DNA of 64,000 nt, from the IMG/VR virus record IMGVR_UViG_3300047554_000685, positions 1 through 64,000 of that record. One strand, given 5' to 3'. This DNA is from a virus. A program made the translations under genes and the position numbers. Each line of letters begins with the position of its first letter. The stretch's first letter is position 1. The notes below the pieces were generated by a model. It did no database searches. It was not told the DNA's origin and saw only the letters and a list, made by a program, of their open reading frames with translations. This document shows, in pieces, positions 32,161 through 52,533 of this stretch.

Positions 32161-32953
32161 CGTAGGAGCGTCTATTATTTGGATCGGGGCTTGACTTTTT
32201 GCTGAAGTATGGTACCCCTGGACGATTTTTTTGAAAATTTGTGGAGCCCGATTTTATAAATAGGGGCGTCTATTTGACCGAGGAATTTGCAGAAGGGGGG
32301 TACTATGCTATATTGATCGCTAGGTGCTTTTGGCGGGTGAGACGGCAGTTGTTGATCTGAGGCCGCCCCGAAATTGTTTCCTAAAAGTAGGGGGTATCGG
32401 GTCTTCGTTCGATGTATGCCTTTTTCTTTTTATTTTCTAATTTTTTCCTTTTTCCAAACTTGCTAATCAAAAAAAGACTATGTGCCTATGTCTAAGGGGG
32501 GGGGTCAAAAGTCTAAAAACTAGGTCATAACTTCTAATCATTTTTTATGTGTTTTTGTGTGTCTTTGTGTGTTGTTATGTATACGAAACTTCTTACGAAA
32601 CTTTGGGGGTCATTCTAAGTTTGCCTAGGGGCTAACAACCTATCAACGAAACCAAGGCTAGGGGTCTAGGGGGTTAGCCTAATCCTGGCGAGCCAAGGCG
32701 AACTTCTGTCAAGTTTCCAAGCTTTCATTTCGATCAAAATTGGTCTTGTGTGTTTGTGAATGTGTGTCTAGTCAAGACTTGCGCCAACAAAATTAAAAAC
32801 ACTTTCCCGGGCGCATAAACCGCGAGCGCGAATCAACCAACAACTAGCCAACAACCAACTAACGGTAACGGCAAGCTGCGAGCAACTTTGACGGCAACGG
32901 CAAAAGAAAACCCCCTAGGGGGCTAGGGGGCTTTCGGTTTACCGCTTTGGGGG

Positions 32954-33187
32954 TTAGCGGTAAGTCTTTGCTAGGCGGTATCCGTATGCCTTCACCGCGA
33001 GCGCGGTAATCACCGCAACCGCGCTAACCGCAAGAATAATCGGGTAAGCAACTTCACCGAATCGGCTTAGGTCATTAGCCATTGACAACCCGTAATAATC
33101 CGCGCTAACAAAAACGGCAACAGCAATCGCGCCATAAATAACCGCGCTAAGGGTTGCTTGCGCCTTCTCAAACTTTGTAATGTTCAT
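32954..33187 (-). CDS. small membrane protein
   Basis: Own promoter, GAAAGGGAAA RBS, terminator; 2 TM. Confidence 0.8.
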   Translation of the reverse strand: MNITKFEKAQATLSAVIYGAIAVAVFVSADYYGLSMANDLSRFGEVAYPIILAVSAVAVITALAVKAYGYRLAKTYR

Positions 33188-33343
33188 TTCATTTCCCTTT
33201 CGTTTTGCTAGGCGGTATCACCTAACACTTCTAATTTACCAACCCTAAACCATTTGTCAAGGGTTTCCGCAAACATTTTTTCGAGCGTGTCGCGGTAAAG
33301 AAAAACCCCTAGCCACAATCGGCTAGGGGCTTTCCGTAAGTTG

Positions 33344-33583
33344 TTAGAGACTTGTCTCAAACTTTTCTTCGGCAACCAAAACATCGTTTCCGTTTTCATC
33401 GCGGTAAGCGAATCCACGAACTACAACGCTAACGCCCGCGCGTGGTGTCGAGTAAAAGTCTACAATCGAGCGAAACTTTTCTTCGCCGTAAGTCTCATAG
33501 ACATAGGTCATTGTCTGGCCATCTTCGTAAGTAACTTCGGCTACGGTTGTTACGATGGTCTTTGTGGTGTCTACTACTAGCAT
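33344..33583 (-). CDS. hypothetical protein
   Basis: Own promoter, RBS and terminator. Confidence 0.8.
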   Translation of the reverse strand: MLVVDTTKTIVTTVAEVTYEDGQTMTYVYETYGEEKFRSIVDFYSTPRAGVSVVVRGFAYRDENGNDVLVAEEKFETSL

Positions 33584-33787
33584 TTCATTTCCCTTTCGTT
33601 TTCATAAACCTTTTGGCTTATGTAATAAGCATACTGTATCTAAGCAACTTGTCAAGTCAATTCCAAAACTTTTTTCCTGGCGCGTCGTTTCGATCAAAAT
33701 TGTTTGCCACCGCGAGCGCGTGTCCACCTAATCACCGCAAAAGAAAACCCCCATCCCTTTCGGGCTAGGGGCTTTCTCGCTTTCCCT

Positions 33788-34090
33788 TTACTTCGTGGTA
33801 AGGGTCAAAACATCGGTGAACTTCACCAAGGCTTCGTATGCTTCTGGGTAAGTTGCTTCGAACTCTTCCCAATCGTTTACCGAACGGCGAACACTCTCAA
33901 CAACTTCGGCGATTACTTCGCCAGTCTTTGGGTCTGCGATTACGGTTGCGGTGTTGCCAGTTTCTGCCAAGACAACTTTACGAATCGCGCTCTCGCGGTT
34001 TGCTAGGTCTGCCTTTGCCTTCTTCACATCAACCAATTCGGCGATTAGTGAAACTAGGTCTACTGCTACGGTTGCGGTCTTTGCGGTCAT
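33788..34090 (-). CDS. hypothetical coiled-coil protein, paralog of 39569..39868
   Basis: Shared 'IAEVVES.RRS.NDW..FEATYPEAYEALVKFTDVLTL'. Confidence 0.85.
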   Translation of the reverse strand: MTAKTATVAVDLVSLIAELVDVKKAKADLANRESAIRKVVLAETGNTATVIADPKTGEVIAEVVESVRRSVNDWEEFEATYPEAYEALVKFTDVLTLTTK

Positions 34091-34221
34091 TTCATTTCCC
34101 TTTCGTTTTTTGTATCTAAGCCTTTTGGCTTATGAAATAAGCATAAGCGGTATTTTTTCTTTTGTCAAGTCAATTCGAGAAAATTTTTATAACAGGTTTA
34201 TAACGGTAAATTGGCAGTCAA

Positions 34222-34560
34222 CCCGGCAGACTGCTAACCAACTTCCAACCAAGGCCGCGAGCGCGAGCTGCTTCTAACCCGGGTCTTTCCGGTTGCGAGC
34301 TGCTTCTGGTCCGGCAAACTTTCAACGAATAGCCCGGCTAGGTCCGGCAGGTAGCCCGGCGCGAGCTGCGCCTTTCCGGTATCAGTCCGGCCGATGAGCT
34401 GCCAACTTCCAACCAATTAGCCGCGTCAAGCTGCGAACAAACCCGGCTATTCCGGTGAACAACCCGGCTAGGTCCGGCGTATGAGCTGCTAACAAACCCG
34501 GCGCGAGCTGCCAAAAACTTCGGTCGATCGACCAACAAGCTGCGAGCAATTTCGATCAAA
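34222..34560. repeat. CCGG / AGCTGC-dense spacer
   Basis: 14 CCGG, 8 AGCTGC and 2 GATC in ~340 bp. Confidence 0.9.
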
Positions 34561-34626
34561 ATTAGAAACCGCGAGCGCGTAAAAAAGAAAACCCCCGCTT
34601 TCGCGAGGGCTTTCCATTTCTTCGGG

Positions 34627-34797
34627 CTAAAAGTTTTCGTTTACCCATTCGAGCATTTCTTCGTAGGTTGCGCCGTCAACATACATTTTGGCAAGGTCTT
34701 CGTTTTCTGCGAGCAACCAAGCGTCTACGGTTGTTTCTGCCGACAAGCGCATTAGCAAGTGTCGAACAGTGTTTGCGGTCTTTGCGTCTAGTGCCAT
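34627..34797 (-). CDS. 56-aa hypothetical protein
   Basis: Start MALDAK after GAAAGGGAAA RBS. Confidence 0.75.
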   Translation of the reverse strand: MALDAKTANTVRHLLMRLSAETTVDAWLLAENEDLAKMYVDGATYEEMLEWVNENF

Positions 34798-34909
34798 TTT
34801 GTTTCCCTTTCGTCTTTCGGCTTTCTGCCGATAAGTCAAGTATGGCAGACTTCCAACGAAAACACAACAACCGCCACATTGGGCGGTTGCGTGTCGCGAG
34901 CGTGTCGCG

Positions 34910-35335
34910 CTAGAACAAGTCTTCGTCTTCTTCTTCGGCAACTTCAAAAGTAAACTCACCAGTGCCAACTGGCTCATCGTGAGAGTAGCGAACAGCGGTA
35001 AGCGTCTTCGCGCCTTCTGTAATCTTGAACCTTAGTGTCCAATCGCCATTGATAGACAACTTCTCAACAAGCGTCTTCGGTGTCGCGTAAGCGTATCCGC
35101 TCAAGCGTTGCCAAGTCATTCCACTTCCGCGAATGATTAGGTTAGTGTCTTCATCGTAGCCATTGGCTTCCATCCAAGGCTTGATAACTTCATACCACAA
35201 GTTGCTAACTTCATCGTCATAGCAACCCCAACACTCATTGCTAGGCGATGACGTTTCAGTCTCTTCATCGTAGTCTTCGCAAATACAAGAATTGGTAATC
35301 TCGAATGTTTCGAATTCGGTTGATACAGTTTCCAT
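34910..35335 (-). CDS. acidic hypothetical protein with CxC/CxxC
   Basis: Own promoter and RBS. Confidence 0.8.
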   Translation of the reverse strand: METVSTEFETFEITNSCICEDYDEETETSSPSNECWGCYDDEVSNLWYEVIKPWMEANGYDEDTNLIIRGSGMTWQRLSGYAYATPKTLVEKLSINGDWTLRFKITEGAKTLTAVRYSHDEPVGTGEFTFEVAEEEDEDLF

Positions 35336-35581
35336 TTTGTTTCCCTTTCTTTATCGCCTTTCGGCTAATCCAAGTATCCCGCGTTTCTCATAAAAAGTCA
35401 AGCAACTTCCAACGAATGTTTTCGAGTTGCGAGCTGCGCGGATCGATCGACCATTGGCCAGGGCCGGTGCCGCGAGCGCGTTTTTGATCAAAATCCGCGA
35501 GCGCGAGCTTTCCGAATCTAGGCGTGATAAAAGGCCAGTTTAGAGACTTAGCCTAGGTCTTTTTTCGTAGGGAAACGAAAC

Positions 35582-35953
35582 TTAGTGAGAGTGTTCCATT
35601 GCTTTCAGAACAACTTCCATAATCTTATCAGTTTGTTCACTAGTGAGAGTTTCAATCTCACCATCGTAGTCTTCGCCACCAGTGATTAGAACATTGCCAA
35701 CGATGAAATCAGTCTGTCCGTATGAGTCTTCCCAAATAGCCGTAGCCAACTCATTTAGCGGAAGGTCTGAAAACTTACCTTCTTCGTTTAGCCACATTGA
35801 CAAGCCACTTAGTGAACCTGCCAACGGAACAACCTGAACCCAACCCCCAACGAATGTTTGTAAAAATTCGAGCGAGATTACTTCGTGAGTTTCGTCCCCA
35901 AAAACAAATCCGCCGTCTTCATTGGTGCGAATTGCGAATACCTTTGTAGTCAT
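35582..35953 (-). CDS. DUF3846-family protein
   Basis: 'LQTFVGGWVQ..MWLNEEGK..LPLNELAT..DFIVGNVLITG'. Confidence 0.8.
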   Translation of the reverse strand: MTTKVFAIRTNEDGGFVFGDETHEVISLEFLQTFVGGWVQVVPLAGSLSGLSMWLNEEGKFSDLPLNELATAIWEDSYGQTDFIVGNVLITGGEDYDGEIETLTSEQTDKIMEVVLKAMEHSH

Positions 35954-36166
35954 TTTGTTTCCCTTTCGTAAGTGCTAGAACCCCTAGCAATTTCTAGTTT
36001 AGCGTTTTGCGATAAAAAGTCAAATCAATTTCTTGACATCCATAGACAACCAACAGCTGCGAGCAATAGTAGTCCTGGCACGATCGAATTTGGATAACCA
36101 ATAGCGAAACCCATAATAAAAATAAAACCTAACCCAACGGCAAGGCCACGCCAAATAATCGCAAAC

Positions 36167-36713
36167 TCAGAATTGCGCCTTGACACTTTGCCACCACTTC
36201 CAAATCGCGGTTAGAGGCTTGCGCTCTTGACGACGGCGACCGTGGCGACCACCTTTGACATACGACTTATGCGCGAGCGTCTGCGTAACGTGAAAAGTCC
36301 GAAACGCTACTGAACCAATTGCGCGCCAAAACTTCTCCATAAAACGGTGATACCTAATCACGACTAACTCCACTTCCGAATTGTAATTGTGCGACCAACG
36401 AACTCAACATCCAACGCGATACCAGTTTCATTCACGACTTCAAATTCCATTCCGTCAAAAATTGAAAACAATTCTGGCTTTGCGTCATACTCCGCGAGCG
36501 CGCCAAACACTTCAAGCGCGGTCTTGCGTGCGTTCATAATTTCTTTGCGCCTTTGGTAGCGACTTACGCTTTCGAGATTACTGCCCATTTTTTTGCCCTT
36601 TCTTCTTTACACTCTACACAAATTTGACGGCTAGTGTAGGTGCCAATCCAAGCGACCCTAATCGCTTTACCACATTCCCAACAACCAATCCAAATCGTAT
36701 CTTGCTTTGACAT
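36167..36713 (-). CDS. three small coupled ORFs (36564-36713, 36364-36588, 36167-36373)
   Basis: Single promoter/RBS upstream of 36713; overlapping ORFs. Confidence 0.6.
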
Positions 36714-36896
36714 TTGGTTTCCCCTTTCTAGGTAATTCCAGATTAGCCTAGTTTGTATAATCGCGCAACAACCAAACTTCCGCGTGTCAAGCTTGACCGC
36801 GAGCGCGGATCGACCATCGATCAAAATCAGCTGCGACCGGCCAGGCTAGATAAAGAAAAAGGGTGACCACCGGCCACCCTATCTCCACGAATCTGA

Positions 36897-37484
36897 TTAC
36901 TTGAACATTCGTAATTGTTCAGCAAACCAATCGTCAAAATCTCCATCGCAACTTTCACACAACGGATGAACTTGACCAACGAATGCTTCAATCTCGGTTT
37001 CGCATTTGTAGCAAGTTGTAGTTTCTTTGGTTTCCATCGTTTCCCTTTCCACTTCCATTCTACAAGCCCAACTGAACTTTTGTGCCGAACTCTGTGATAA
37101 TTTCATCGAATCCATCTTGCTCAAGAACTTCAGCGAAATCCATTCCCGTATAGTCTTCGATGCGCTCAATCAAATCGGGCGACAGGTTATCTGTGTCAAG
37201 AACATAGACAGGGTGCTCATTGTGATACTGCCACCAATCACCATTTACATTCGCAACATACTTAGCCATTATGCGCTCCACGCTCCCCAATCCAAATCAC
37301 TTGCTTCACGCTGTGAATCTGACCAAGCGGTTTCTCCATAGAAATACTTGACCTTGCCACTTTCTTTGTTTGTCATACGCCAGTAGTCTTCTGCGAATAC
37401 TGCTGTGCCAGTTGCCAACTCCACGACTTTGCTATCGTAGATAACTTCCCAACTCTTTACTAATGAAACGCTAGGCTTTGCCAT
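36897..37484 (-). CDS. three small ORFs (37269-37484, 37060-37269, 36897-37037 with CxxC-CxxC)
   Basis: RBS GAAAGG before 37484 and 37037; coupled starts. Confidence 0.7.
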
Positions 37485-37773
37485 TGTCGTTTCTCCTTTC
37501 CCTATGCTCCAAGATTACACTAGTCCTGCGACAAACGCAAACAACTTCGAATGAATCCGCGAGCGCGTTTCGATCAAAATTAGCTGCGTCAAGCTCCGGT
37601 CCGGCCAGGGCAGCTCTGATCGATCACCGCGAGCGCGGCCATAATCCAGACAAAAGAAAAACGGTAGCAATTGGGGGGAATTGCTACCGCTCTCTTTGCG
37701 AAAGGTGAAAGGGGGATAACTCCTTTCGCTATTCCTTAGGCGAGTAATCTCGAGCCTAAGCAACTCTTCTAGT

Positions 37774-38121
37774 TTACACAGAATTGTCTTTCAGCGCAAA
37801 TTCTGTATTCACTTCACCTTGATACTCGTATTCGCCATTGTCTGCGTTTACGGTAATTGTGTCATTGTCCACCCAAGCAGAACCTTCTTCGTATCCATAG
37901 GCGTCGATACCGAAAGACAACTTACCTTCGTATCCACCGAGCGCGACCGCGAACTCATAGAAAATCTGCGCGGTGAGATAGTTCACATCGCCGATTCGGT
38001 CTGTGCGTGCGAGCACATTGCGAACTGCCACCAAGTTATCTCCACCCGACCAGTGTCCATAAAGTGTAATCGGCGCTTTGAAATTCTTGCTATTGATTAC
38101 GATTAGCGACCTGTCTCCCAT
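37774..38121 (-). CDS. hypothetical protein, 'MGDR...YGHWSG' family
   Basis: Similar N-terminal pattern to 40086..40610. Confidence 0.7.
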   Translation of the reverse strand: MGDRSLIVINSKNFKAPITLYGHWSGGDNLVAVRNVLARTDRIGDVNYLTAQIFYEFAVALGGYEGKLSFGIDAYGYEEGSAWVDNDTITVNADNGEYEYQGEVNTEFALKDNSV

Positions 38122-38330
38122 TATGCCACCGCCACCCATTTGACAGCGGTGCGTAGCAAGTTGTCATAATCGCCACTTGTGCTCTCGGCGTAGTATTCGT
38201 CAATTTCTTCTTTTGAAACTCCAGCGTCTTTCAGCGCGCTAGCAACACGACCCATAATCGCGAAAGCATTTCCATCTTCCCCGACCAACTGAACTTGAAC
38301 ATCTGGATACTTCGGCTCTCCAAAACTCAT
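38121..38330 (-). CDS. conserved phage hypothetical ('GEDGNAFAIMG...SGDYDNLL')
   Basis: Recognisable motif; own promoter. Confidence 0.8.
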   Translation of the reverse strand: MSFGEPKYPDVQVQLVGEDGNAFAIMGRVASALKDAGVSKEEIDEYYAESTSGDYDNLLRTAVKWVAVA

Positions 38331-38489
38331 TTTTCTTTCCCTACTTTCCTAGGCAATTTGCCTAATACAAAGATACTGTATTTTGCTTTTTAGCGCAACT
38401 TCAAACGAACACTAATTTTGTGTCTTGTGATCGATCGACCAGGGCGACTGGTTTCGATCCGCGAGCGCGGCCGTAGCCGAGCTCACCCC

Positions 38490-38885
38490 CTAGTCTTCGT
38501 CTTCTTCGTCTTCGTCTTCGTAGTCATTACAAACACCAGCGCAACCGCGCTCACCACAATCTTCGCAATCTTCTTCTTCGAATTGCCCGATTAGAGTTTC
38601 GAAACCTTCGTTAGCATCCACACCTTCTGGCATAGTAGAGACCGCGCTCACAAAACGTAGCCCACAACTTTCTTCATACCAGTGCTTGACTTTCTCCAAC
38701 ATCTTGTCCGCGCTCATTGCGTATTTGGTGATAAGACCTTCTGTATCAGTCCCATCCCCATAGCCATACTCGCGCATAAGCGAGACTTGCTCATCGTCCA
38801 TAAGCACGTAAATCTTGTGGCAAGTGTCCCAAGCAATCGCCTTGGCGTCTACCAATCGTTCTTCAACCAAATCAAAGTTTGTCAT
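38490..38885 (-). CDS. acidic hypothetical protein with C-terminal Cys cluster
   Basis: Own promoter and RBS. Confidence 0.8.
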   Translation of the reverse strand: MTNFDLVEERLVDAKAIAWDTCHKIYVLMDDEQVSLMREYGYGDGTDTEGLITKYAMSADKMLEKVKHWYEESCGLRFVSAVSTMPEGVDANEGFETLIGQFEEEDCEDCGERGCAGVCNDYEDEDEEDED

Positions 38886-38980
38886 TTCATTTCCCTTTCT
38901 TTTTAGGCTTTTTGCCTACCTAAAAGATACCGCATTTTAGGACAACACGCAACATCCAACGAACATTTTTTTTCGTGTCT

Positions 38981-39155
38981 TGATCGATCGACCAGCTCCC
39001 AAGTCATCTAACTTCCAACGAATTAGTTGCGGCTTGTTAGATCTGGATCACCGGTAATCACCTGGCTAGATCTCCCTGGTCCGGCCCCGGCGATCAGATC
39101 AATCTAAGCTGCGTGATCAGCTGCGCCATAGATCTAGATCAGCTCCGGTCCGGGT
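38981..39155. repeat. GATC-dense spacer
   Basis: 10 GATC, 5 CCGG, 4 AGCT, 2 CCTGG in ~175 bp. Confidence 0.9.
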
Positions 39156-39194
39156 AAAAAGAAACCCTGGCCGAAGCCAGGGCTCTTTGTATGA

Positions 39195-39251
39195 CTACCG
39201 GTTTGGGCAGTCTCCATGGTCATGGCCACAGCATGGAAAGTCTTCGCACAT
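39195..39251 (-). CDS. 18-aa Cys/His micropeptide MCEDFPCCGHDHGDCPNR
   Basis: Between TTGACA-17-TAAGTT promoter (39284-39312) with purine-rich RBS and terminator 39157-39187. Confidence 0.55.
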   Translation of the reverse strand: MCEDFPCCGHDHGDCPNR

Positions 39252-39568
39252 CTTGCACCCCCTATCTCCCTTTCTAACTCCAAACTTACCACCCAACCCA
39301 AAACGTGTCAAGTCTATTTTGATAACAGATTGATAACACTCGCGAGCTGCTTCGAGCTGCGACTGAGCTGCGCCAGCTCCGGTAAAACTTCCAACGAGCT
39401 GCGACTAAGCTGCAATGCCAGCTGCTGCGATTCGCTTCATAACTTCTAACGAACAACCACACCCATTCGATCCGGCTCCGGTCCAGGCAAGCCCGGCGGA
39501 TCGACCAACAACCGAGCAAGACGAAACCCCCCAGTCTTTCGACTGAGGGGGCTTGCGACCTCCCGACC

Positions 39569-39868
39569 CTACTTCTTTTTGAGAGTGTTGAGGGTTAGAA
39601 CATCAGTGAACTTGACCAGTGCCTCATAAGCCTCTGGATAGGTTGCCTCAAAGTCGTCCCAATCGTTGATTGAGCGACGGGTGCTTTCCACGACCTCGGC
39701 GATAATCACGCCAGCCTTGTCAGCAATCTCAACAGCAGTGTTGCCAGTCGCTCCAAGAACCGACTTGCGAATTACGCTCTCACGAGCAGATAGTTCAGCC
39801 TTTGCTTCACGAACCTCAATGAGTTCGTCAATCAGGGCTACAACATCAACGACAACAGCCTTAGCCAT
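39569..39868 (-). CDS. paralog of 33788..34090
   Basis: Direct protein similarity; GAAAGGA RBS. Confidence 0.85.
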   Translation of the reverse strand: MAKAVVVDVVALIDELIEVREAKAELSARESVIRKSVLGATGNTAVEIADKAGVIIAEVVESTRRSINDWDDFEATYPEAYEALVKFTDVLTLNTLKKK

Positions 39869-40085
39869 TTTCGTCCTTTCCCTAGAAATCAAGCCAACCT
39901 TGTGTTCGCTTGTAATACCAAGCCTAGTCTGCTACTTTTCGCAAGTCAAGCCCAAACAGCATTATTTTTATAACAGGTTTATAACGGAAATTTTTAATCT
40001 GATCGATCAGCTGCAACCAGCGATCGCCAGGATCTCGGGCAAAAGAAAACCCCCACATTTCTGCGGGGGCAATCTTTTGTAGCGA

Positions 40086-41216: not shown

Positions 41217-41453
41217 TTACTCGCTTTGGCTTGGCATTTTCTTAGTTGCCAATTCCATTAGGTAAGCAATGACTTCCATTACTTGACCCAACTTGTCCCA
41301 GTCATGGGCTTTGGCAAGTTGCTCGGCATACTCAGACATAACTGCGCTTGCCCTTACCAAAGGTTCTACTGCGTCAATGATTTCGTTTGACTTGGTTAGC
41401 GTTGCGTCAAGTTCTGCCAACGCGGTGTCTAGCGGTGTGTTCATGTTTCCCAT
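41217..41453 (-). CDS. hypothetical protein
   Basis: Own promoter and terminator. Confidence 0.65.
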   Translation of the reverse strand: MGNMNTPLDTALAELDATLTKSNEIIDAVEPLVRASAVMSEYAEQLAKAHDWDKLGQVMEVIAYLMELATKKMPSQSE

Positions 41454-41575
41454 TCTGTTGGATACTTTCCAACTAGTTCAAATGTAGCATAGACGACTGA
41501 CATTTTGCGACAAGTTTGAAAACTTTTTTCGGGCCGGTGATCGCCAGGCGGATCGATCCGGCGAGCGCCGCGCCC

Positions 41576-41794
41576 CTAGTCTTTTGCTAGACGCTTCGTG
41601 TTCAAAAGGTCTAACGCATCTAGATAGTATTTCCTATCGTCATCTTCAATCCACTCGTTTGCGTCTGTGTCCCAAACTTGCTCATCTTCACTAAACCGCG
41701 CCGAATAAGTATCATCTGCGATAAAAACTTCTTTGTCATCTAAATCAACGCCAATGACAAAAAATACCTGCTTGCTCAATCTATTTCCTCTCAA
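41576..41794 (-). CDS. acidic hypothetical protein
   Basis: Downstream of HicA-like gene; start may be ~41779. Confidence 0.6.
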   Translation of the reverse strand: MRGNRLSKQVFFVIGVDLDDKEVFIADDTYSARFSEDEQVWDTDANEWIEDDDRKYYLDALDLLNTKRLAKD

Positions 41795-41987
41795 TCGTGA
41801 TTCCGTGTCGGCGAAGTTCCGACACTAGGTTTTTGACGGCACGCCCGTCTGACGGCGTAGACGCGGAAAAAACTATTTGCCCACTTGGCGAAGTCCACTT
41901 CAAGTGTCCACCACCAGTTAGAGTAACGACCCAGCCCTTAGACTCGGCGACCTTGACTATCTGCTTGAATTCTTTTCTGTTCGACAT
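41781..41987 (-). CDS. HicA-like dsRBD-fold protein (leaderless)
   Basis: 'GWVVTLTGGGHLKWTSPSG..VFSASTPSD.RAVKN...LRRHGI'. Confidence 0.75.
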   Translation of the reverse strand: MSNRKEFKQIVKVAESKGWVVTLTGGGHLKWTSPSGQIVFSASTPSDGRAVKNLVSELRRHGITIERK

Positions 41988-42153
41988 ACTTCAAATGTAG
42001 CACCACCCACTGACATTTTCAACGACACGCCTAAAACTTTTTTCGAGCTTCGATCCCTGCAGCTTACCACCGGCACCACCGCGGATCGACCAACGCCTGG
42101 AAATAAGTGGCGAGCAGTTTTACAACTTGCTCAGGTTGGGTGTGGCTTCGAGG

Positions 42154-42543
42154 CTAAACGAGTTCGTCCTCAGGCTCAGCCTCGCGAACCAAGACCGTAC
42201 GAGTGAAAACCGAAGTTCCCCAAGTCAAGTCATGCCCCATTGAAGTCGCCTCAACCTCAACCGAGGTTCCCGAACGCTCACCGTTATCCCAATCGCGAAC
42301 GCGAAGTGTGCCAGTGACGGTGATACGGTCGCCCTTGTTCACCGAGCCAGCGACATTGATAGCAAGTTGCTTGAACGCGGTAATGGTGAACCAGTTGGTC
42401 TCACCGTCTACCCACTTGTTTTGCTCGCGGTCAAACTTGCGGTATGAACTTGCGAGACGGAATGAAGTAATCGGCAGGCCGTCCTGAGTTACGAGGTGGC
42501 GAGGTGTTGTGGCAACTAGGCCAGTGACAGATACAGTTTCCAT
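42154..42543 (-). CDS. ssb: single-stranded DNA-binding protein
   Basis: 'ITSFRLAS..R.FDR...WVDGETNWFTIT.F..LA.NV..S..KGD.I.V.G.L..R.W', actinobacterial-type SSB. Confidence 0.92.
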   Translation of the reverse strand: METVSVTGLVATTPRHLVTQDGLPITSFRLASSYRKFDREQNKWVDGETNWFTITAFKQLAINVAGSVNKGDRITVTGTLRVRDWDNGERSGTSVEVEATSMGHDLTWGTSVFTRTVLVREAEPEDELV

Positions 42544-42778
42544 TGTTTCCCTTTGATAGTTTCCAAGTGAACTTTTGTCCACCCTTGGATTTTAGCATAG
42601 CGAGCCGACATTACGCAACTTCCCACGAGAGCCTTTTTTCGTTGGAAGTTCCGACGGTAGCCCCCGCCTGGATCGACCAAACCGCGAGCGCGAAATCCAT
42701 TGATCCGGTTCAGCTGCAACCACGCCAAACAAGAAACCCCCGCCCGACGGCGAGGGTTCTTGCTTTTTAGGGAAACGA

Positions 42779-43252
42779 CTACCAACTGGATTGGTATTCG
42801 AAATCGTAATCCTTCAGACTTTCCGAAGTCAAAAGGTGGTTCAGCATTTCGGCGGTGTACTTCACGCCTTCGTAGTACCACTCATCAAGGTCAGTACTTC
42901 CGAAGAAGAAACCACTCTGTGGTGGTAGCAACTCATCAGCCTTCGTGGCATCAGCCAATACAGTCTGGCACGCCTCAAGAAGTTCAGCCAGTTGCTCACG
43001 AGATACCCAAGCCTTCTGGCACTCATCACGACCACCCTGAACATTCTGAACAAACCAGTTGTGAATGGCGTTCGCCTTGCGCCAGTACCCCACGCTAATT
43101 TCAATGGTGGCACTTGGGTTGCCATACTCCAAGTCTGACTTGGTCAAGCCACTAGCAGATAGCACTTCAGCGTACGCCTGCTTCTCTGGCTCTTTGTTGA
43201 AATCGTAGCCACTCACATACTTGCGAGCAGATAGATACATATCTAGTCCCAT
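42779..43252 (-). CDS. conserved phage hypothetical ('MGLDMYL...YWRKANAIHNWF...YQSSW')
   Basis: Recognisable widespread phage family. Confidence 0.85.
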   Translation of the reverse strand: MGLDMYLSARKYVSGYDFNKEPEKQAYAEVLSASGLTKSDLEYGNPSATIEISVGYWRKANAIHNWFVQNVQGGRDECQKAWVSREQLAELLEACQTVLADATKADELLPPQSGFFFGSTDLDEWYYEGVKYTAEMLNHLLTSESLKDYDFEYQSSW

Positions 43253-43327
43253 TGGACTTCCCTTTCCCTACGCCCTACTCTTTTTCAGGCACGCCACCAG
43301 TTTACACTAAGTCAGCAAAAATACAAA

Positions 43328-43630
43328 CTATTTGGCGAAAGTTTTTTGACCTAGATCGACCAGCAGCTCCTCAACAGTATCTGGAATCTGATACCCACCA
43401 ACCAAGATCCCGGCACGAATAATCATTTCTCCGGTGCTAAGTGATAGAGCTGCGGCCCAGGACGATACAACTTCGGAAGAAGCTTCTTTCTGTCCACGCT
43501 CAAGCTCACTAAGGTATCCGAGTGCCATCTTCGCACTAGCTGCAACTTGGCGTAGAGTCAAGCCTTGATCGATCCGTTCCTCGCGAGCAATGTGTCCAAG
43601 GGCTTCGCGGTAAAGAATTTCATTTTTCAT
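43328..43630 (-). CDS. XRE-family HTH regulator, ClgR-like (leaderless)
   Basis: 'TLRQVAASAKMALGYLSELERGQKEASSE'; TTGACG-17-TACGCT promoter 6 nt before ATG 43630. Confidence 0.85.
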   Translation of the reverse strand: MKNEILYREALGHIAREERIDQGLTLRQVAASAKMALGYLSELERGQKEASSEVVSSWAAALSLSTGEMIIRAGILVGGYQIPDTVEELLVDLGQKTFAK

Positions 43631-43716
43631 ACGATCAGCGTAGTGCACGCACGCCTATCCGTCAAACAAAAAACACCAGCAGCTCTCTCGCTACTGGTGC
43701 TTTCTGTCCGTTAGGG

Positions 43717-44574
43717 CTAGGCAACCTCGGTCAAGGTTGGATAGACACGCACGCCGTCTTCTTCAACCCACGCCACGCTATCCTCACTAATCCGCACGCC
43801 GTTTGGTTGTTCGGCATTAGTGAAGTTTTCCAGCACGCCGTTCGCAATCTCCCACGCCGATTCAGCCGACTTCGCCGTAATCCGAATTACTTGCCGAACT
43901 ACAACCTCGAACTCCTTTTCGGGACGAGGGCAGTCGTCATACCAATACTCGTCGTCGTCAGGGTCGCTCGCACAATTACAGGAATCTTCCCTGTCCCTGT
44001 CCACATAATCTTGGTGGCTGTCGGGGATGTCCCATTCCTTAGTCATAATCAAGGAACGCTCGCCCTCCTCGTCGCCGTCCGAAGAAGTGAACTCCGCACC
44101 CCAGCCCTGCTCTTCCTCACTCCAAAAGTCGAAGTCCAGCGTTGGGAACTTCCGAACAATCGCATTGAAGACTGGCTCGGGAATACTCCACGCCGTATTG
44201 AACGAATAGCCCAGCGAGGTTTCGCTGTCGTCATTCAAGTCAGCGTCGCAAGCGTCCCACTTAGTTCCCCACTCACGAACATTCCAGTCATACCAACCAT
44301 TCGACGAGAACTTCATTGAGTAAGCGAGTTGTTCCTCTGAAGTCATTTTGTCGTAGCCCTCTGGCTTGTAGTCGCTTGCCCCGAAGTAGAGTGCCTTGTC
44401 CTCTGGCTCAACAAAATTCCAGAACGAGAACACCTCCTCCTTGTCGTCGTAAGTTAGCGAACCAGTTTGGCTGTCGAATCCAGTTGGTGCTTTTCGTCCT
44501 GCCAGTTCCTTGAACTCAGCAATCTTTTCCTTTGAACCTGAAACGCTCAGGGTGTTGTAAACCCAGTTTGGCAT
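43717..44574 (-). CDS. DUF1281 / YubB ferredoxin-like domain protein
   Basis: 'MPNWVYN', 'WYDWN..EWGTKWD', 'FNTAWS.P'. Confidence 0.8.
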   Translation of the reverse strand: MPNWVYNTLSVSGSKEKIAEFKELAGRKAPTGFDSQTGSLTYDDKEEVFSFWNFVEPEDKALYFGASDYKPEGYDKMTSEEQLAYSMKFSSNGWYDWNVREWGTKWDACDADLNDDSETSLGYSFNTAWSIPEPVFNAIVRKFPTLDFDFWSEEEQGWGAEFTSSDGDEEGERSLIMTKEWDIPDSHQDYVDRDREDSCNCASDPDDDEYWYDDCPRPEKEFEVVVRQVIRITAKSAESAWEIANGVLENFTNAEQPNGVRISEDSVAWVEEDGVRVYPTLTEVA

Positions 44575-44576
44575 TT

Positions 44577-44864
44577 TTAGTTCTCCTCTCCAGTTAGGTT
44601 GTGTTCCTCAATCAAGTTGTCAATGGTTAGACCAGCGTGAATCTTCACGCTCTCTAGGTGAATGGTTAGTTCTTCGTTTCCAAACTTGCGTGCCAGCATA
44701 CAAGCAAGTTCCAACGAACGATACATCAGTGGGTCAGCGTATCCTTGCTCGCAGTAGTTCTCGACAAGAACACCAAGAGCAGTCAAGGCGATACCAGCAA
44801 TCTGGTGGTCGTCCAAGTCCATACCCTCGATTTGGTTTTCTAGGTTTTCGCAGTTATCGCACAT
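44577..44864 (-). CDS. hypothetical protein
   Basis: GAAAGGGAAA RBS before ATG 44864. Confidence 0.7.
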   Translation of the reverse strand: MCDNCENLENQIEGMDLDDHQIAGIALTALGVLVENYCEQGYADPLMYRSLELACMLARKFGNEELTIHLESVKIHAGLTIDNLIEEHNLTGEEN

Positions 44865-44987
44865 TGGTCGTTTCCCTTTCTCTAGCGATAATTCGATTGT
44901 AGCAGAGTATTGCGACAAAACAAACACATTCATTGGAAGTTTCGTGGCAGCTTTCGCCAGGTCCGGCGCAGCTTGTGATCGATCGAT

Positions 44988-45257
44988 CTAGTCTTCTTGG
45001 TCAAAAGCTTCTCGGCGAACTTGGTTCATCTCGAGATCGTCTTCGATACATAGGCAGGTATCACATAGGAAATACCCCAAGTAGTTGTAGTTCCAGTGAG
45101 TAACAACGGCCGCGCAATCTACGCACCGGACTGATTCCCCGGGCGCACCGCAGACGTGGATAGTGTCATCATTTTCGATCCCGTAGAACAACTCAACGAA
45201 ATCATCTTCATTCAGTTCTTCATTCATGATCCCTAGCGTATCCGCTAACCCTGACAT
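44988..45257 (-). CDS. acidic Cys-rich hypothetical protein
   Basis: ORF track; CxxC pairs. Confidence 0.5.
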   Translation of the reverse strand: MSGLADTLGIMNEELNEDDFVELFYGIENDDTIHVCGAPGESVRCVDCAAVVTHWNYNYLGYFLCDTCLCIEDDLEMNQVRREAFDQED

Positions 45258-45440
45258 TTCCCGGGCGATCGATCAGCAGCTTTTCTCGCGCACGCCAGCA
45301 CGCCACCGTCAGTCCGGGCAAAACGAAATCCCTACCAGCGGGGGAACTGATAGGGATTTCTAATCCGTTAGCGGAGAGCGATTTTGGAAAGGGGGAAACG
45401 AGTTTGCTCAATCCGCTAACGGACTTCTTAGGCACGCCGA

Positions 45441-47231
45441 TTACACGCCACCCCCGATTTTCGCGAGAGCGTCAGACGCAGACTTGCCGATTGAGAGCGC
45501 GATACTTTCGACTTCCATTCCGTCAAGGTGAACCGCGTGAGTTCCGCGCACAATCTCTTGCGCGCCGATTGAGTGGCACGCCTTTGGCGTAATGAACAGA
45601 ACAGCCACGCCAGCCAGTTCGCACTCTTTGATAATCCGCTTTGCGTTTTCGGTTTCTTTCGAAACATAGTTTCCGTCCGATACAACAACCAACAAACGCA
45701 CGCCGTCCGAGTAAGTCAGACCGAGCGCGCCATTGAGAGCCGAGAACCCCTTGTCAAAAACTTCGGTGCTATCTGGCGCAGACCAGACCGAAACTTCTTC
45801 CAATTTCTGCCCGACTTTGAGTGTCGCGAAAACATCTTCACCGAAATAGACCATAGCGGTTTTCGCCTGAACCCTACGACCAGCCTCGCTAAGAACCCAA
45901 GCAGTTGTCGCCATAGCGTCCATAGCCGAACCCATAGAACCACTAATGTCCACCATTACGCCAATGGTCAGCGTTGGGTCGTCAGTGTGTTTGCGCGACT
46001 TTGACTTCCAAGCAGGGAGTTCGCCACGCAATCCCATTGACTTCATAGCACTATTCTGAACAGCGTTGCGAGTGTTGAGTTTGCCAAGTGGCGCGTGAGT
46101 TTTGCGAATGTGAACTGAACGCTCACGATACTTCGCCTTGTCCAACATCTCAGCAATCTTGACAGCACTCGCGCGCTCACCAGATTTTGGCGCACGCTTT
46201 TCGCGAAGTGAAGAACGCGACTTAGTTCCAGTAGAACCCTCTTCGCGCTTTTCGAAAACGACCTCTGAAACTTTGCGCTCTTCGCTCTTCTTCTTACTCT
46301 GGTCAGCGCGACCCTTTGCCTCTTCTGCCCACTCTTCGCCAGTCTGTTGGTCAGTCAAGTCAATCGAAACAGCAATCGCAGTTCCACCAGCGTCCTCTTC
46401 CAAGTCCTCTTTGGTCGCGAGAACAAAAGCAATTCCAGCACCCTCGCCACTCTCGCCCTCTGGGTCAGCCTCGCGCAAAATCTCAACCCACTCGCGAGCC
46501 AAGTCAAGACCAGCGACAGTCGCGCCATTCGCGAGCGCGTGGAAACGCACCCAGACAGAACGCAACTTGTCAAACAACTCTTGACCAAGAACATCAAGCG
46601 CACGCTCATAAATCTTTTCGACATCTGCCAGACCAAGAACGCCAGCGTCCACGCGAGCGAGAGCAAGTCCAGCCATTTGCGCCATTACGCGAACCTCGCT
46701 CACCTTTGCCAATCCCTCTTCGTCAATCTCACCAAGAGCAAGACCAAGAGCAGACGCACGCAGGAAGAGCCTATTCTTTGGGTAAATCAAAACGCCAATG
46801 CGCTCAATGCGACTTTCTTCTAGCAACCAAAAAGCGTCAAGAACATTTTGGTTTCCAGCCTTATGCTCAACTTCGAAGAGCGAGTAATCCCACTTGTCAG
46901 AAGAGCGAGCGTGAAGAGCCTCGTGATAAATCACGCCAGTTGGTTCTGCCCAATCGTATTGAGTTTCGCGAAGTGTGAAGTCGCCAACCATTTCTGGCGT
47001 GGTCGCGTTTCCAAACGCACCAGCCAAGTTGATTTCGATTTCAGCAGTAGAGCCAATAAAGCAAGCAATCGCTTGACCCATACCAGCGTCCTCACCAGCA
47101 TAGACAGCCAAGTCATTACGACCAGCCCAATCATTCGCGACCTTGCCAATCTGGGCGCAGGTTGCCAACCATTCCGAGGGAGTGAAACTAGCGCGAGTTG
47201 CGAGGCGCGAGTTAGGTGTGAAGTGTGTCAT
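45441..47231 (-). CDS. VWA-domain protein with HExxH motif (CobT/MoxR partner-like)
   Basis: 'YHEALH', 'LEESRIE', MIDAS 'VDISGSM', 'VVVSDG'. Confidence 0.85.
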   Translation of the reverse strand: MTHFTPNSRLATRASFTPSEWLATCAQIGKVANDWAGRNDLAVYAGEDAGMGQAIACFIGSTAEIEINLAGAFGNATTPEMVGDFTLRETQYDWAEPTGVIYHEALHARSSDKWDYSLFEVEHKAGNQNVLDAFWLLEESRIERIGVLIYPKNRLFLRASALGLALGEIDEEGLAKVSEVRVMAQMAGLALARVDAGVLGLADVEKIYERALDVLGQELFDKLRSVWVRFHALANGATVAGLDLAREWVEILREADPEGESGEGAGIAFVLATKEDLEEDAGGTAIAVSIDLTDQQTGEEWAEEAKGRADQSKKKSEERKVSEVVFEKREEGSTGTKSRSSLREKRAPKSGERASAVKIAEMLDKAKYRERSVHIRKTHAPLGKLNTRNAVQNSAMKSMGLRGELPAWKSKSRKHTDDPTLTIGVMVDISGSMGSAMDAMATTAWVLSEAGRRVQAKTAMVYFGEDVFATLKVGQKLEEVSVWSAPDSTEVFDKGFSALNGALGLTYSDGVRLLVVVSDGNYVSKETENAKRIIKECELAGVAVLFITPKACHSIGAQEIVRGTHAVHLDGMEVESIALSIGKSASDALAKIGGGV

Positions 47232-47474
47232 TTCCAGTCCTTTCCAAAACTGATTACCTATCTAGGATAGCACTTTTCGATTGTCGCGCAACCCCCATTC
47301 GCAGAAAAAATCCAGTGATCCTGGCGCAGCTATTTCCGGCCATAAGTTCCCGGGAGCTTTTCCCGGGCAGTGATCGATCAGTGGCAAAGCTGCAGACGAT
47401 CGAAACGCACTATCCCCGAAAAAGCAAAAGTGCCAGATTTCTCTGGCACTTCGCTTTTCAGTTTCGGACGGAAA

Positions 47475-48491
47475 CTAAATCTTCGCAGGACGACATTCTT
47501 CACCAAAGACGCGAGTGAAAACATCTGCCACAACTGGGCGGTCAAGTTCTGGCGCACTCGCGAGCAAGTTTGAGATTGCGAACTTAGTTCCAAACACTTC
47601 GCTGATTGACTTGTATGCCAACAGTTCGCGCATTTGTGGCGACCAAGAAGTTTCGCCATTCGCTTGCTTTTTCGCGAGGTTCTGGGCAACTGAAACAGCA
47701 GACGCAGGAACGCCCAACTTCTTTGCCAATGCCCAGTCAGTAGTCATTTCTGCCTGAATGGAAAAGCGTGAGAGCAACGCCTCGCTTAGGCGAACTCCGG
47801 GCGCATTGGGGTTTGTCGCGCCAATCACATAAAAGCCGTCCTTTGCTTTTACAGTTCCGCGCTCTGGGTTCGCAGTGATTACGATTTCTTTGCGTCCGTC
47901 CATAAGACCATAGACAGCCGAAAGAACCTTTGGGTCAATCAGACCAATCTCGTCAATCAAAAGAACTTTGCCCTCTTCGGCAGACTTGACCAAAACGCCG
48001 TCCACCCATTCGAAAGCACCACTTGGAGTTTGGACATAGCCACCAATGAAGTCCGAAAGTTCGGTGTCGCCTGAACCCAAGATTGTGTAAAGTTCATCTG
48101 GGAACGCGCCCTCAACGAGAGCAGTTTTGCCAGTTCCGGGCGCACCATACAAAAGGACATACTGATTGTTTGAGCGTGCTTTGCGAAGAACCTCGACATC
48201 TGAATGGTCGCCCCAAGAGCGAGAGAAATAAAAGTCGCCATTCGGACGCTGATACTTCTCAGCACCCTCAATAGTTTCTACGCTCACAGTTGCCTTTGCC
48301 TTTGGTTTTGGAGTTCCAGTTCCAATCTTAGCGCGAAGATTTGCGCGTCCACTTTTCGGCATTAGCGAAGATAGACCAGCAGGAACTTTGGTTTCATCTT
48401 CACCCTGAACAGCAACGCCGAAAATTAGCGAGGTGAGTTCTGGGTAAATTGCGTCCACGACTTCTTCGTGGGTTTTGGTTTCGATAGTCAT
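47475..48491 (-). CDS. MoxR/CbbQ/CobS-type AAA+ ATPase
   Basis: 'GAPGTGKT', 'LLIDEI', 'ATNP', 'EALLSRF', 'QMREL'. Confidence 0.9.
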   Translation of the reverse strand: MTIETKTHEEVVDAIYPELTSLIFGVAVQGEDETKVPAGLSSLMPKSGRANLRAKIGTGTPKPKAKATVSVETIEGAEKYQRPNGDFYFSRSWGDHSDVEVLRKARSNNQYVLLYGAPGTGKTALVEGAFPDELYTILGSGDTELSDFIGGYVQTPSGAFEWVDGVLVKSAEEGKVLLIDEIGLIDPKVLSAVYGLMDGRKEIVITANPERGTVKAKDGFYVIGATNPNAPGVRLSEALLSRFSIQAEMTTDWALAKKLGVPASAVSVAQNLAKKQANGETSWSPQMRELLAYKSISEVFGTKFAISNLLASAPELDRPVVADVFTRVFGEECRPAKI

Positions 48492-48518
48492 TTTAGTTTT
48501 CCGTCCTTTTCGATTTCC

Positions 48519-49025
48519 CTAGTAAAGGTTTTCTGGGTAGCCAACTTCGGCGCGCGCTTTGGTAATTCGGCGCAACGCAGACGCAGGTGCTTTCCAAGCA
48601 CTAATGTCAGTGAAATCAACATCAGTTAGTTCGAACACGATTGGTCGTGGTCGTGGTGTAAATCCCTCTGGGAACATACGCGCAGTGATTTCGCTCGCAC
48701 GCGAACCAAGTTCGACAGCCTTGTCAATAGGCGACATAGCGTCAAACTCTTTCGGAGTGCGAACAAAGTTAGTGCGCCATTGAGCGCGAGGTGTGAAACT
48801 ACTAATGGTGCGATAGATAACAGCCATACTTACGACTTCGCCCTTTTCGTTTTTACCACTTGGGGTAATCAGAACTTGGGTGGTTCGTGCGTATGAGTTA
48901 GTTGCGTGCGCCTCTAAATAAATGCCCATTCCCATTAGGCGAGGCTTGTTGCTTACCTCTTCGTGCGAAGTGGCAAGTGCGTCAGCAATTTCGGAAGATA
49001 CTTCCCCGAATGTTGTTGGGTTCAC
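48519..49025 (-). CDS. hypothetical protein
   Basis: GTG start after GGAAAGG; upstream of AAA gene. Confidence 0.7.
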   Translation of the reverse strand: MNPTTFGEVSSEIADALATSHEEVSNKPRLMGMGIYLEAHATNSYARTTQVLITPSGKNEKGEVVSMAVIYRTISSFTPRAQWRTNFVRTPKEFDAMSPIDKAVELGSRASEITARMFPEGFTPRPRPIVFELTDVDFTDISAWKAPASALRRITKARAEVGYPENLY

Positions 49026-49153
49026 TTTCGTGCCTTTCCAATTAGTTGAGTGTCGTTTTCCCGACAAGAGCAACTTTACACGAAGTCGCGACAAAAGCGC
49101 AACTCTTCCAACAAAGATTTTTTATTTATTTTTCCCGGGCGATCGATCAGCAG

Positions 49154-49444
49154 CTAGTCGTCGTCGAGATCGTCGAAAGTTAGGGGATCAAGATCTTCGT
49201 CTAAGAAGGGGTTAGCAGGGGTCGAGCTAATCGCATCTTGGGCACAGTCCAAGCAAACTATCCACTGAGTACTTTCATCGAGTCCTATTAGATATGCATA
49301 GAAGGTGCCATTAGATTGGCCCACGTCTTCAGTGCAGCTGATGCATGCAATGTCAGCTAAATCCTCGGGGGTAACTAGTCCAGCCACTATGGCCATACCA
49401 GCATCGACTTCGTCTTCTATTAAGTGGAGTTCAATTGCTCTCAT
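49154..49444 (-). CDS. acidic zinc-finger-like hypothetical protein
   Basis: CxxC...CxxC. Confidence 0.6.
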   Translation of the reverse strand: MRAIELHLIEDEVDAGMAIVAGLVTPEDLADIACISCTEDVGQSNGTFYAYLIGLDESTQWIVCLDCAQDAISSTPANPFLDEDLDPLTFDDLDDD

Positions 49445-49579
49445 GAAATCTAATCGTACTGCAGTTAATAAATAGTGATTCGTGAGAAGTTCGTTGATGC
49501 CAAGCCGGCGATCGATCCGCTTAAAAGAAAACTTCCCACGAACGAATTCGTAGAAAGTTTCAGTGGATCCGTTAGCTAG

Positions 49580-52515: not shown

Positions 52516-52533
52516 GAGTGAATTATATCTCAT

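Follow-up and report, generated by a model that had tools for sequence, protein, structure and literature searches.

Analysis of the IMG/VR virus record IMGVR_UViG_3300047554_000685 (G000; 79,362 bp), bases 1-64000 of which constitute the window described here, identified a 16.5-kb block of about 30 small minus-strand genes (32680-49153) in which the transcription units have been purged of most short palindromes of restriction-site type, while the untranscribed gaps between these units are packed with several of the same words. The block was delineated from open reading frames, ribosome sites, intergenic sequences, a promoter/terminator scan and a binned palindrome profile. The reading we favour, with a confidence that stops a little short of even, is that the block comprises standardised immediate-early genes that are restriction-proofed unit by unit, following the logic of first-step transfer in phage T5, and that breaks between the units are tolerated or used.

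The genes of the block are mostly autonomous units that share a single order of signals, comprising an upstream element TTCGTTGGAAGTTG, a TTGACA-type -35 sequence, a -10 sequence, the ribosome site AAAGGGAAA, the gene itself and a hairpin terminator. After each stop codon a G+C-rich hairpin with a run of T residues is followed by a gap of 15-400 bp, which extends to the TTCGTTGGAAGTTG element of the next unit. The canonical set consists of 28 such units with 10.9 kb of coding sequence; two non-canonical genes and one doubtful open reading frame were left out of it.

In the 31 cassette coding sequences (11.6 kb) the 11 rarest strand-symmetrised four-base words are, without exception, palindromes (11/11; chance 9e-13), with counts of TTAA 0, ATAT 1, TATA 1, TGCA 3, CATG 4, ACGT 5, CCGG 6, GTAC 6, AGCT 7, GGCC 7 and GATC 9. 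Against 500 synonymous-codon shuffles, which preserve the proteins and the pooled codon usage, each of these words displayed a z score of -3.6 to -8.4, and the observed count was reached in none of the shuffles. The same null showed that CCWGG, GGWCC, GCNGC, GGNCC and GANTC are also depleted. Within the 28 canonical units GATC and AGCT are absent, where about 32 and 43 copies, respectively, would be expected, as is TTAA. Of the 16 four-base palindromes, 11 have been removed from each of these units, along with most five- and six-base ones, and 17 genes contain none of the 11 words. By comparison, the structural genes of the phage (25.8 kb) show mild deviations only, nothing comparable to the depletion in the block. 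These data bear out the sequence-only reading, made by eye, in its claims that the 1.8-kb VWA-type gene (45441-47231, minus strand; none of the 11 avoided words) is site-free and that structural genes carry the words freely. The claim that cassette coding DNA lacks GATC and AGCT holds for the canonical units, but two genes discussed below are rich in sites.

Avoidance is selective. CGCG and GCGC are enriched in the cassette coding sequences (z about +3), as is TCGCGA (14 copies against 5.3 expected), demonstrating that the block does not avoid every palindrome. CTAG is not depleted, and TCGA and AATT are depleted mildly (AATT z -4.3). The cores of the tolerated palindromes sit mostly inside TCGCGA, TTCGAA and GCGCGC, and 16 of the 20 six-base palindromes built on these cores occur no more than twice. 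It may be that CGCG, GCGC and TCGCGA carry no risk in the host, or are even favoured there. Because the avoided set, with both strands counted, consists exactly of palindromes, the agent appears to read double-stranded DNA in the manner of a symmetric dimer, and avoidance at the level of RNA was rejected as the main cause. Relaxed selection after the gain of a methylase was likewise rejected, as the units still contain no GATC and no AGCT at 21-25% third-position divergence; purifying selection against these two words in the early units is ongoing.

The gaps display the converse pattern for a subset of the words. Relative to dinucleotide shuffles, the gaps contain 57 GATC (14.7 expected, z 11.9), 46 AGCT (21.8 expected), 45 CCGG (21.3 expected), 36 GCWGC (10.2 expected) and 18 CCWGG (7.1 expected); CTAG and TCGA are enriched in the same way. 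The word GATCGATC is found 13 times in gaps, where 0.1 copies would be expected, and has no copy in the other 62 kb of the genome. By contrast, avoidance of ACGT, ATAT, CATG, GTAC and TTAA extends from the genes into the gaps. The proposal that the spacers are built from the very words removed from the genes is therefore correct for GATC, AGCT, CCGG, CCWGG and GCWGC but not for these five. Between 32.6 and 49.6 kb, 243 of the 266 GATC, AGCT, CCGG, GGCC, CCWGG and GCWGC sites lie in 21 clusters that together occupy 2.1 kb, and the computed clusters coincide with almost all of the spacers picked out by eye. A rough split gives about 80 sites/kb in the gap cores, 12/kb in promoters and 5' regions, and about 3/kb in coding sequence. 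GATC, AGCT and CCGG, together with CCWGG and GCWGC, are about 25 times denser in the untranscribed gaps and the two non-canonical genes than in the units.

The largest gap array, at 34223-34557, contains 14 CCGG, 8 AGCT, 8 GCWGC and 2 GATC in 335 bp. The gap at 38982-39227 is rich in GATC (10 copies, with 6 CCGG, 4 AGCT and 4 CCWGG), while that at 39345-39502 is dominated by AGCT and GCWGC (7 of each, with 4 CCGG). Smaller packed gaps are located at 35432-35536 (11 sites), 36790-36875 (10), 37572-37640 (13), 38429-38483 (6), 40001-40034 (7), 40698-40772 (11), 41121-41171 (11), 41532-41561 (7), 42046-42100 (7) and 42667-42717 (6). The gap at 44947-45038, which includes GATCGATCGATC and 11 sites, extends at its right into a site-rich gene encoding an 89-aa protein, and a gap with 14 sites (47317-47401) lies upstream of the VWA-type gene. 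At the promoter-proximal edge of the block is the gap at 49135-49228, beyond which genes carry palindromes freely. Several gap words have a preferred orientation. CCGCGAGCGCG, which reads CGCGCTCGCGG in the sense of transcription, occurs in 13 forward and 0 reverse copies, the first at 32820-32830 (plus strand), with 12 between 32.8 and 38.5 kb and one at 42.68 kb; other oriented gap words in this genome are GCCGG (25:2) and CCGGA (25:1). CGCGCTCGCGG is probably a protein-binding box.

The two site-rich genes have neither the canonical promoter nor the canonical ribosome site, from which it follows that the partition is between canonical early units and the rest of the block. The 89-aa gene (44988-45257, minus strand) contains 9 sites. 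The other (43328-43648, minus strand) encodes an HTH_3 (Cro/CI-type) regulator (Pfam HTH_3, E 5e-8) and contains 5 GATC, 5 AGCT, 2 CCGG and 2 TGCA. GATC and AGCT are both enriched in this gene through synonymous choice; for GATC, 5 copies were observed against 1.5-2.1 expected (p about 0.004-0.013).

That the units contain no GATC or AGCT, while some 57 GATC lie in the gaps of the same DNA, indicates either that phage fitness survives a cut between units or that the sites go uncut. Proofing of the individual units would bring no gain were every cut lethal, and it is for this reason that we read the block as proofed per unit. The earlier suggestion that any cut leaves intact, expressible cassettes thus has a sound logical core, in that units are purged and gaps are not, although the alternative of uncut sites stands against it. 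Three features, namely the palindrome signature, its confinement to one block and its differences among lineages, implicate Type II restriction. We infer a scheme in which many Type II restriction systems would act on DNA that is needed before the phage makes or applies protective functions, such that the selected property would be the integrity of the single transcription unit rather than that of the DNA molecule, and a double-strand break between units would be survivable or even used. The excess in the gaps calls for a positive force. The high density of sites would most likely be kept up by a site-centred process, either break-and-rejoin or local duplication at cut sites, which would multiply a word where insertions are harmless; the alternative is selection for many sites.

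The evolution of the sites was explored by aligning the genome with three sister contigs (G001, G002 and G003), which are collinear with the window at 80-90% nucleotide identity. Identity inside gap sites is 77-83%, compared with 75-79% at third codon positions and 82-84% at other intergenic positions; the gap sites are at or below the other intergenic positions, and below them in the comparisons with G001 and G003. Small indels are 2.5-3 times commoner at site positions than at other intergenic positions. Of the gap sites in G000, 44-59% are shared at the same column with G001 or G003, and GATC totals are kept at 45-60 per genome despite this turnover. The longer words behave differently, CGCGCTCGCGG and GATCGATC being retained 2-10 times above the neutral expectation: 6 of 13 copies of CGCGCTCGCGG persist in the comparison with G001, where 0.6-1.5 would be expected under neutrality, and 7-11 of 15 copies of GATCGATC are retained, again above that expectation. 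Exact head-to-tail doublets are present as 14 copies of GATCGATC in G000 and 11 in G001, and as 10 copies of CCGGCCGG in G004, a more distant relative described below. Filling in and rejoining of a four-base 5' overhang by end-joining is expected to yield exact 4-bp doublets. The excess of indels at sites, the doublets and the arrays fit a multiplication of sites that would be centred on breaks. Fill-in doublets were rejected as a general signature, as they are confined to GATCGATC in the G000 clade and CCGGCCGG in G004, with nothing clear for AGCT, for TCGA-to-TCGCGA or for CCGG-to-CCGCGG.

Near-neutral turnover of individual sites is also what would be seen if the gaps were a passive refuge, in which words are tolerated where they are harmless and their excess derives from replication slippage and gap-to-gap copying, with neither benefit nor breaks. 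The tandem arrays of G004, with periods of 5-13 nt, and the lineage specificity of the extended words are consistent with such a model. Slippage, however, leaves unexplained why the amplified words are those purged from the neighbouring genes. In addition, the same three cores are amplified in lineages that have different flanks, and the synonymous enrichment of GATC and AGCT inside the HTH gene is not accounted for. We consider a passive origin very unlikely.

Cassette content differs between related genomes, with the junctions of cassette indels, both between relatives and between strains of one sample, located in gaps. Two genes of G000 are absent from its sisters, while G001 and G003 contain two extra cassettes at the GATC-rich gap (38982-39227), the sequences diverging at a GATC word and rejoining at a GATCGATC word. 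Variant contigs from the source sample join 34204 to 37617, 33639 to 34182 and 34338 to 34495, and one back-joint (35969 to 33612) was found in a contig of run X1. These data are consistent with a natural polylinker, in which breaks made in the gaps by nucleases of the host or the phage would start recombination or ligation, and autonomous early cassettes would be gained, lost and reordered. PeSL cassettes of T4-type phages, which have the same architecture, mediate such shuffling (PMC2839356). A single site per gap would suffice for this purpose, however, leaving arrays of tens of sites unexplained, and as the gaps constitute most of the non-coding DNA of the block, junctions would be expected there anyway. 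The joints in the variant contigs have short flanks (21-68 nt) with 90% likeness, clean-gap relatives also vary in cassette content, and selection for evolvability is a second-order effect. A polylinker function is, in our view, a distinctly unlikely explanation of the packing, and the earlier idea that cuts seed the reshuffling of cassettes draws weak support from the location of junctions in gaps and from one indel with GATC words at both junctions.

Related loci were collected using as marker the AAA_5 ATPase gene of the block (47475-48491, minus strand; MoxR/CobS-like; Pfam AAA_5, E 4e-21), which yielded 80 loci at 58-100% identity. Palindrome depletion recurs in dozens of related contigs, downstream of the same AAA/VWA gene pair. 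Many relatives possess a block almost without 4-bp palindromes, gaps included; the block of locus L029 retains only AATT, CTAG, TATA and TTAA, and that of L034 only CTAG and TATA. In such clean lineages the gaps are short and hold only a conserved element upstream of the promoter, indicating that the block can function without packing. The avoided set varies by lineage, as different host restriction repertoires would predict. CTAG is purged in no palindrome-depleted block, and some lineages show no avoidance at all. Comparison of the 31 block proteins with 60 loci revealed no block gene exclusive to the packing lineages.

Packing of GATC, AGCT and CCGG recurs, in other flanking contexts, in G004 (locus L044; 67% AAA identity) and in L052 (75%). 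The occurrence of the same three cores with different flanks shows that the shared feature is the 4-bp core and not a longer motif. Repetition of the analysis in related genomes, which the sequence-only reading had proposed, thus reveals widespread depletion and recurrent packing, alongside many relatives with clean gaps. In G004 (126 kb, 94% complete by CheckV), which has a 30-kb block, 91% of the GATC, AGCT and CCGG sites lie in 20% of the block length without orientation bias, and CCGGCCGG doublets take the place of GATCGATC. The end of its block (33.3-34.2 kb; L107:13300-14230) is a 930-bp non-coding array that adjoins packaging genes and has two parts, TGATCA-type units over about 470 bp (44 GATC) and then AGCTC units over about 380 bp (58 AGCT, of which 47 are AGCTC in one orientation). 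A TGATCA array is absent from the homologous place in G000.

Site densities of this order, about 80/kb in the gap cores of G000 and 102 sites in the 930 bp of G004, are far beyond what tolerance alone would produce and count in favour of a decoy or sacrificial sponge, the main idea of the sequence-only reading, in which clusters and arrays would be selected to draw restriction enzymes, or other nucleases with the same recognition words, to harmless places and thereby buy time for intact cassettes to yield anti-restriction proteins. Either sibling phages would benefit or the genome itself would, by way of repair or a second copy. The arrays have the look of such a sponge. All 18 clusters tested contain at least three of four word types. 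Many block proteins of unassigned function are very acidic (isoelectric point about 4.1, net charge -12 to -39), which is weak evidence of a resemblance to DNA-mimic anti-restriction proteins, and ArdC-type anti-restriction domains are present in the virion module. Restriction enzymes turn over, however, and some 250 sites cannot occupy them for long. Furthermore, packing involves only 3-5 of at least 11 avoided words, gaps are clean in many relatives, and no precedent was found in the literature searched. A full word set in every gap was rejected: all four types are present in 10 of the 18 clusters where 7.9 would be expected (p 0.16; a second p value was 0.06), so the even mix of words is not significant. 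We regard a decoy as distinctly unlikely, and found no evidence for the suggestion that the sites tie up enzymes. A combined form, an evolved sponge and polylinker that would channel all Type II cuts into untranscribed DNA, so that a first-entering, expendable or repairable segment would still express its anti-defence cassettes, with the HTH gene possibly a sensor destroyed by restriction, is also improbable, if slightly less so.

The packed words all contain cytosine and are classic targets of C5 methylases, which counts in favour of an alternative in which the gaps are methylation or binding islands. Here the gap words would be marked by the phage's split C5 enzyme or by host methyltransferases, or bound by other readers, and would be excluded from the units because a mark or a bound protein there would disturb early transcription; possible roles include the marking of self DNA, the insulation of units, the blocking of DNA-tracking enzymes and regulation by the HTH protein. 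A C5 methylase, in two halves in overlapping frames, is encoded by five genomes, G000 (70850-72170, beyond the window), G001 (24395-24952), G002 (6511-7068), G008 and G009. The 188-aa open reading frame carries the N-terminal motifs FSGYGG, PCQ and ENV, whereas the 320-aa frame contains the target-recognition part, a GNGV motif and two 'LPTP' segments, which may represent two recognition modules. The match contains 1-2 TGA codons in all five genomes, and the recurrence of this split shows that the enzyme is a real two-subunit or frameshifted protein rather than an assembly error. Homologues of the HTH gene are site-rich only in the clade with this methylase. The above-neutral retention of CGCGCTCGCGG and GATCGATC and the orientation of several words in G000 and G001 also fit marked or bound islands, as does the G004 array, in which TGATCA units lie beside packaging genes; the TGATCA/G hexamer cluster of phage P1 is a packaging site controlled by methylation (PMC10028697). 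The principal difficulty is G004, which packs the same words without a PF00145, PF01555 or PF02086 methylase in an assembly that is 94% complete. Packing restricted to genomes with a C5 methylase was accordingly rejected as a strict rule, as five packing genomes have the enzyme and G004 does not. No N6/N4 or D12 (Dam) methylase families were detected in G000, G001 or G004-G008, nor any N6/N4 family, the only one tested there, in G009-G010. Individual sites turn over at near the neutral rate, and orientation bias is absent in G004. Were every site methylated and safe, there would be no known reason for the total purge of the units. Nor is methylation of cytosine or adenine known to block the RNA polymerase of the host. 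Marked or bound islands are, on balance, unlikely, but rank first among the alternatives to unit-by-unit proofing.

Several observations weigh against unit-by-unit restriction-proofing with tolerated breaks. What points to restriction enzymes as the agent is the palindrome signature in the sequence, and a location of the block in first-entering DNA or in a terminal repeat is at most a possibility. The reading does not account for progeny from a genome cut in up to 20 places, and T5 itself is restricted if its first-step DNA has a site. Many relatives manage with short, site-free gaps. Doublets affect one word per lineage, and AGCT, a word of the blunt-cutter type, shows none. The oriented and conserved words (CGCGCTCGCGG, GCCGG and CCGGA) fit binding boxes better than scars. 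Finally, contig word depth (30501-50500; runs X1, X3, X4 and X9) is 1.1-2 fold higher from about 32.4-32.9 kb onward than on the side of the structural genes, but in these contigs the step is not reversed at 49.2 kb.

The closest parallel to the block is the first-step-transfer DNA of phages T5 and BF23, against which Type I and Type II systems act only via sites in the first-entering DNA (PMC10644984). Similar to that region, the block is a bounded set of small early genes served by host RNA polymerase, with the rest of the genome carrying sites freely, and its common orientation recalls T5, in which most pre-early genes point towards the entering end. Freedom from restriction-type sites distinguishes the block from the rest of its genome, a signature stronger than T5's own: the 9.1-kb region of T5 shows no general avoidance of 4-bp palindromes, whereas 11 of 16 words are purged here, and gaps packed with sites are absent from T5. 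No homologues of the T5 pre-early proteins A1, A2 and dmp emerged when 20 block proteins were scanned against PHROG and Pfam. The likeness is one of logic, not of descent, and the comparison with T5 and T7 drawn in the sequence-only reading is apt.

The individual units resemble PeSL cassettes of the hyperplastic regions of T4-type phages, in which small non-essential genes lie between a strong sigma-70-type promoter and a stem-loop terminator, content varies among close relatives and junctions fall in modules (PMC2839356, PMC4122927). The block genes are framed in the same way, by a strong promoter of this type and a stem-loop. PeSL cassettes have not, however, been described as partitioning restriction words, and the block has an extra segment of 40-400 bp of palindromic words between terminator and promoter. 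The depletion of short palindromes is established as a passive anti-restriction strategy of phages at the level of the whole genome (PMC6286503); here, in contrast, avoidance is regional, organised per unit, near-absolute for four-base words and accompanied by local enrichment of some of the same words. The pac site of P1, a functional cluster of seven TGATCA/G hexamers in 161 bp inside a gene that is controlled by Dam adenine methylation in an enterobacterial host (PMC10028697), has a possible counterpart in the 470-bp TGATCA array beside the packaging genes, which is present in G004 only. It differs in that the present phages have tens of copies, several words and about 20 places, and in that no Dam-type gene was found.

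The stoperators of the actinophage L5 of mycobacteria are many asymmetric short intergenic sites in one orientation relative to transcription. These lie in transcribed DNA and are not palindromic words of restriction type, such that the resemblance extends only to the oriented CGCGCTCGCGG (13:0) and not to GATC, AGCT or CCGG.

The non-coding boundary between the block and the lysis/terminase genes (32000-32680) is a candidate packaging or terminus region. Within it are three direct repeats (iterons) of CGTAGGGGCGTCTATT, about 100 bp apart at 32059-32274, which are candidates for a terminase-binding site, a terminus or an origin. Contigs of two independent runs end at 32354. The iteron region (32.0-32.7 kb) and the 930-bp arrays of G004 are, at most, candidates for an injection stop signal. 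Contig ends among the 80 relatives (loci L020-L099) are strongly one-sided: 39 of the contigs stop no more than 10 kb upstream of the AAA gene, against 6 that stop within the same distance downstream. In several relatives the ends fall within a few hundred bases of one homologous place about 5.7-7.2 kb upstream of that gene. Either a true end of the molecule or a hypervariable stretch at which assemblies break off would account for this. All 20 runs that contain G000 DNA, each a freshwater or aquatic metagenome, are available as contigs, and the depths given here are contig depths. The sister G001 is a circular assembly of 136 kb, and its 'terminal repeat' is an assembly overlap of 127 bp.

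Between 1 and 31 kb lie the genes for a tape measure protein, the major tail and head proteins, a portal, a large terminase and a large head-module protein that contains an ArdC-type anti-restriction part, gene content that identifies the phage as a siphovirus. Its nearest named relative is Actinomycetia phage DSL-LC01 (OQ999401), a metagenome-assembled genome (PMC10611076) from a lake, with 74% terminase identity, followed by large Microbacterium, Gordonia and Arthrobacter phages. The first 50 kb of DSL-LC01 (L019, bases 1-50000) contain 0 ATAT and 0 TTAA, and very few AATT and CTAG. DSL-LC01 was rejected as a model, as its loss of ATAT and TTAA is genome-wide, its word set is different and it has no block; the left arm of Gordonia phage GodonK was rejected as a cultured model because its gene order is too different. 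Megablast queries of 18 kb and 20 kb taken from the window found no match among 50,697 phage records, Rfam at gathering scores identified nothing in 31.5-50.5 kb, and a tRNA scan of the window found none.

The block begins, in the direction of transcription, with a gene for a 168-aa protein, the AAA_5 ATPase gene near its promoter-proximal start and the VWA-type gene. The last of these encodes a 596-aa, CobT-like protein, the partner of the AAA ATPase, which has no Pfam or PHROG hit and whose counterpart in DSL-LC01 is annotated 'cobalamin biosynthesis protein'. Further units include an SSB gene (42154-42543), a gene for a HicA-like small protein (41781-41987) and two paralogous cassettes with about 70% nucleotide identity (33788-34090 and 39569-39868), the 100-aa products of which match the C-terminal part of the RecE-like exonuclease family phrog_434. 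An 18-codon cysteine-rich micro-gene, MCEDFPCCGHDHGDCPNR (39198-39254, minus strand), has its own promoter, ribosome site and terminator and is kept in G001 with synonymous changes and one residue changed; it carries 2 CATG and 1 GGCC, words otherwise avoided in the block.

The most palindrome-rich stretch of the window lies 3-5 kb upstream of the block, at 52001-54000, where 2 kb contain 25 AGCT, 25 GATC, 18 TGCA, 14 GTAC and 13 CCGG. Within it lie a 277-aa gene that matches no family, the greater part of a 313-aa gene (only a weak hint of an E2 domain) and the end of a 2OG-Fe(II) oxygenase gene, and it adjoins glycosyltransferase and sugar-nucleotide genes. G001 has a similar stretch at the homologous place.

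Regional avoidance of sites in first-expressed phage DNA and autonomous promoter-terminator cassettes (PeSLs, PMC2839356) are both already known, but in the literature searched we found no description of purged units that alternate with gaps packed with the same words. Restriction avoidance is usually seen as a property of the whole genome, any cut being assumed to be lethal. In this block selection appears to act on each early transcription unit separately, with the same words kept, and even multiplied, only a few bases from it. Should a phage survive breaks between units, it could be cut and yet prevail through a second copy, through repair or by helping its siblings, and models of restriction pressure on phages would change. 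Marked or bound islands in the gaps would instead imply that a hitherto undescribed factor in actinobacteria or their phages reads 4-bp palindromes. The block provides a marker, recognisable from sequence only, of DNA that acts before phage protection, and offers about 28 candidate anti-defence genes. The some 180 related contigs, which include lineages with clean gaps and lineages with packed gaps, constitute a natural experiment.

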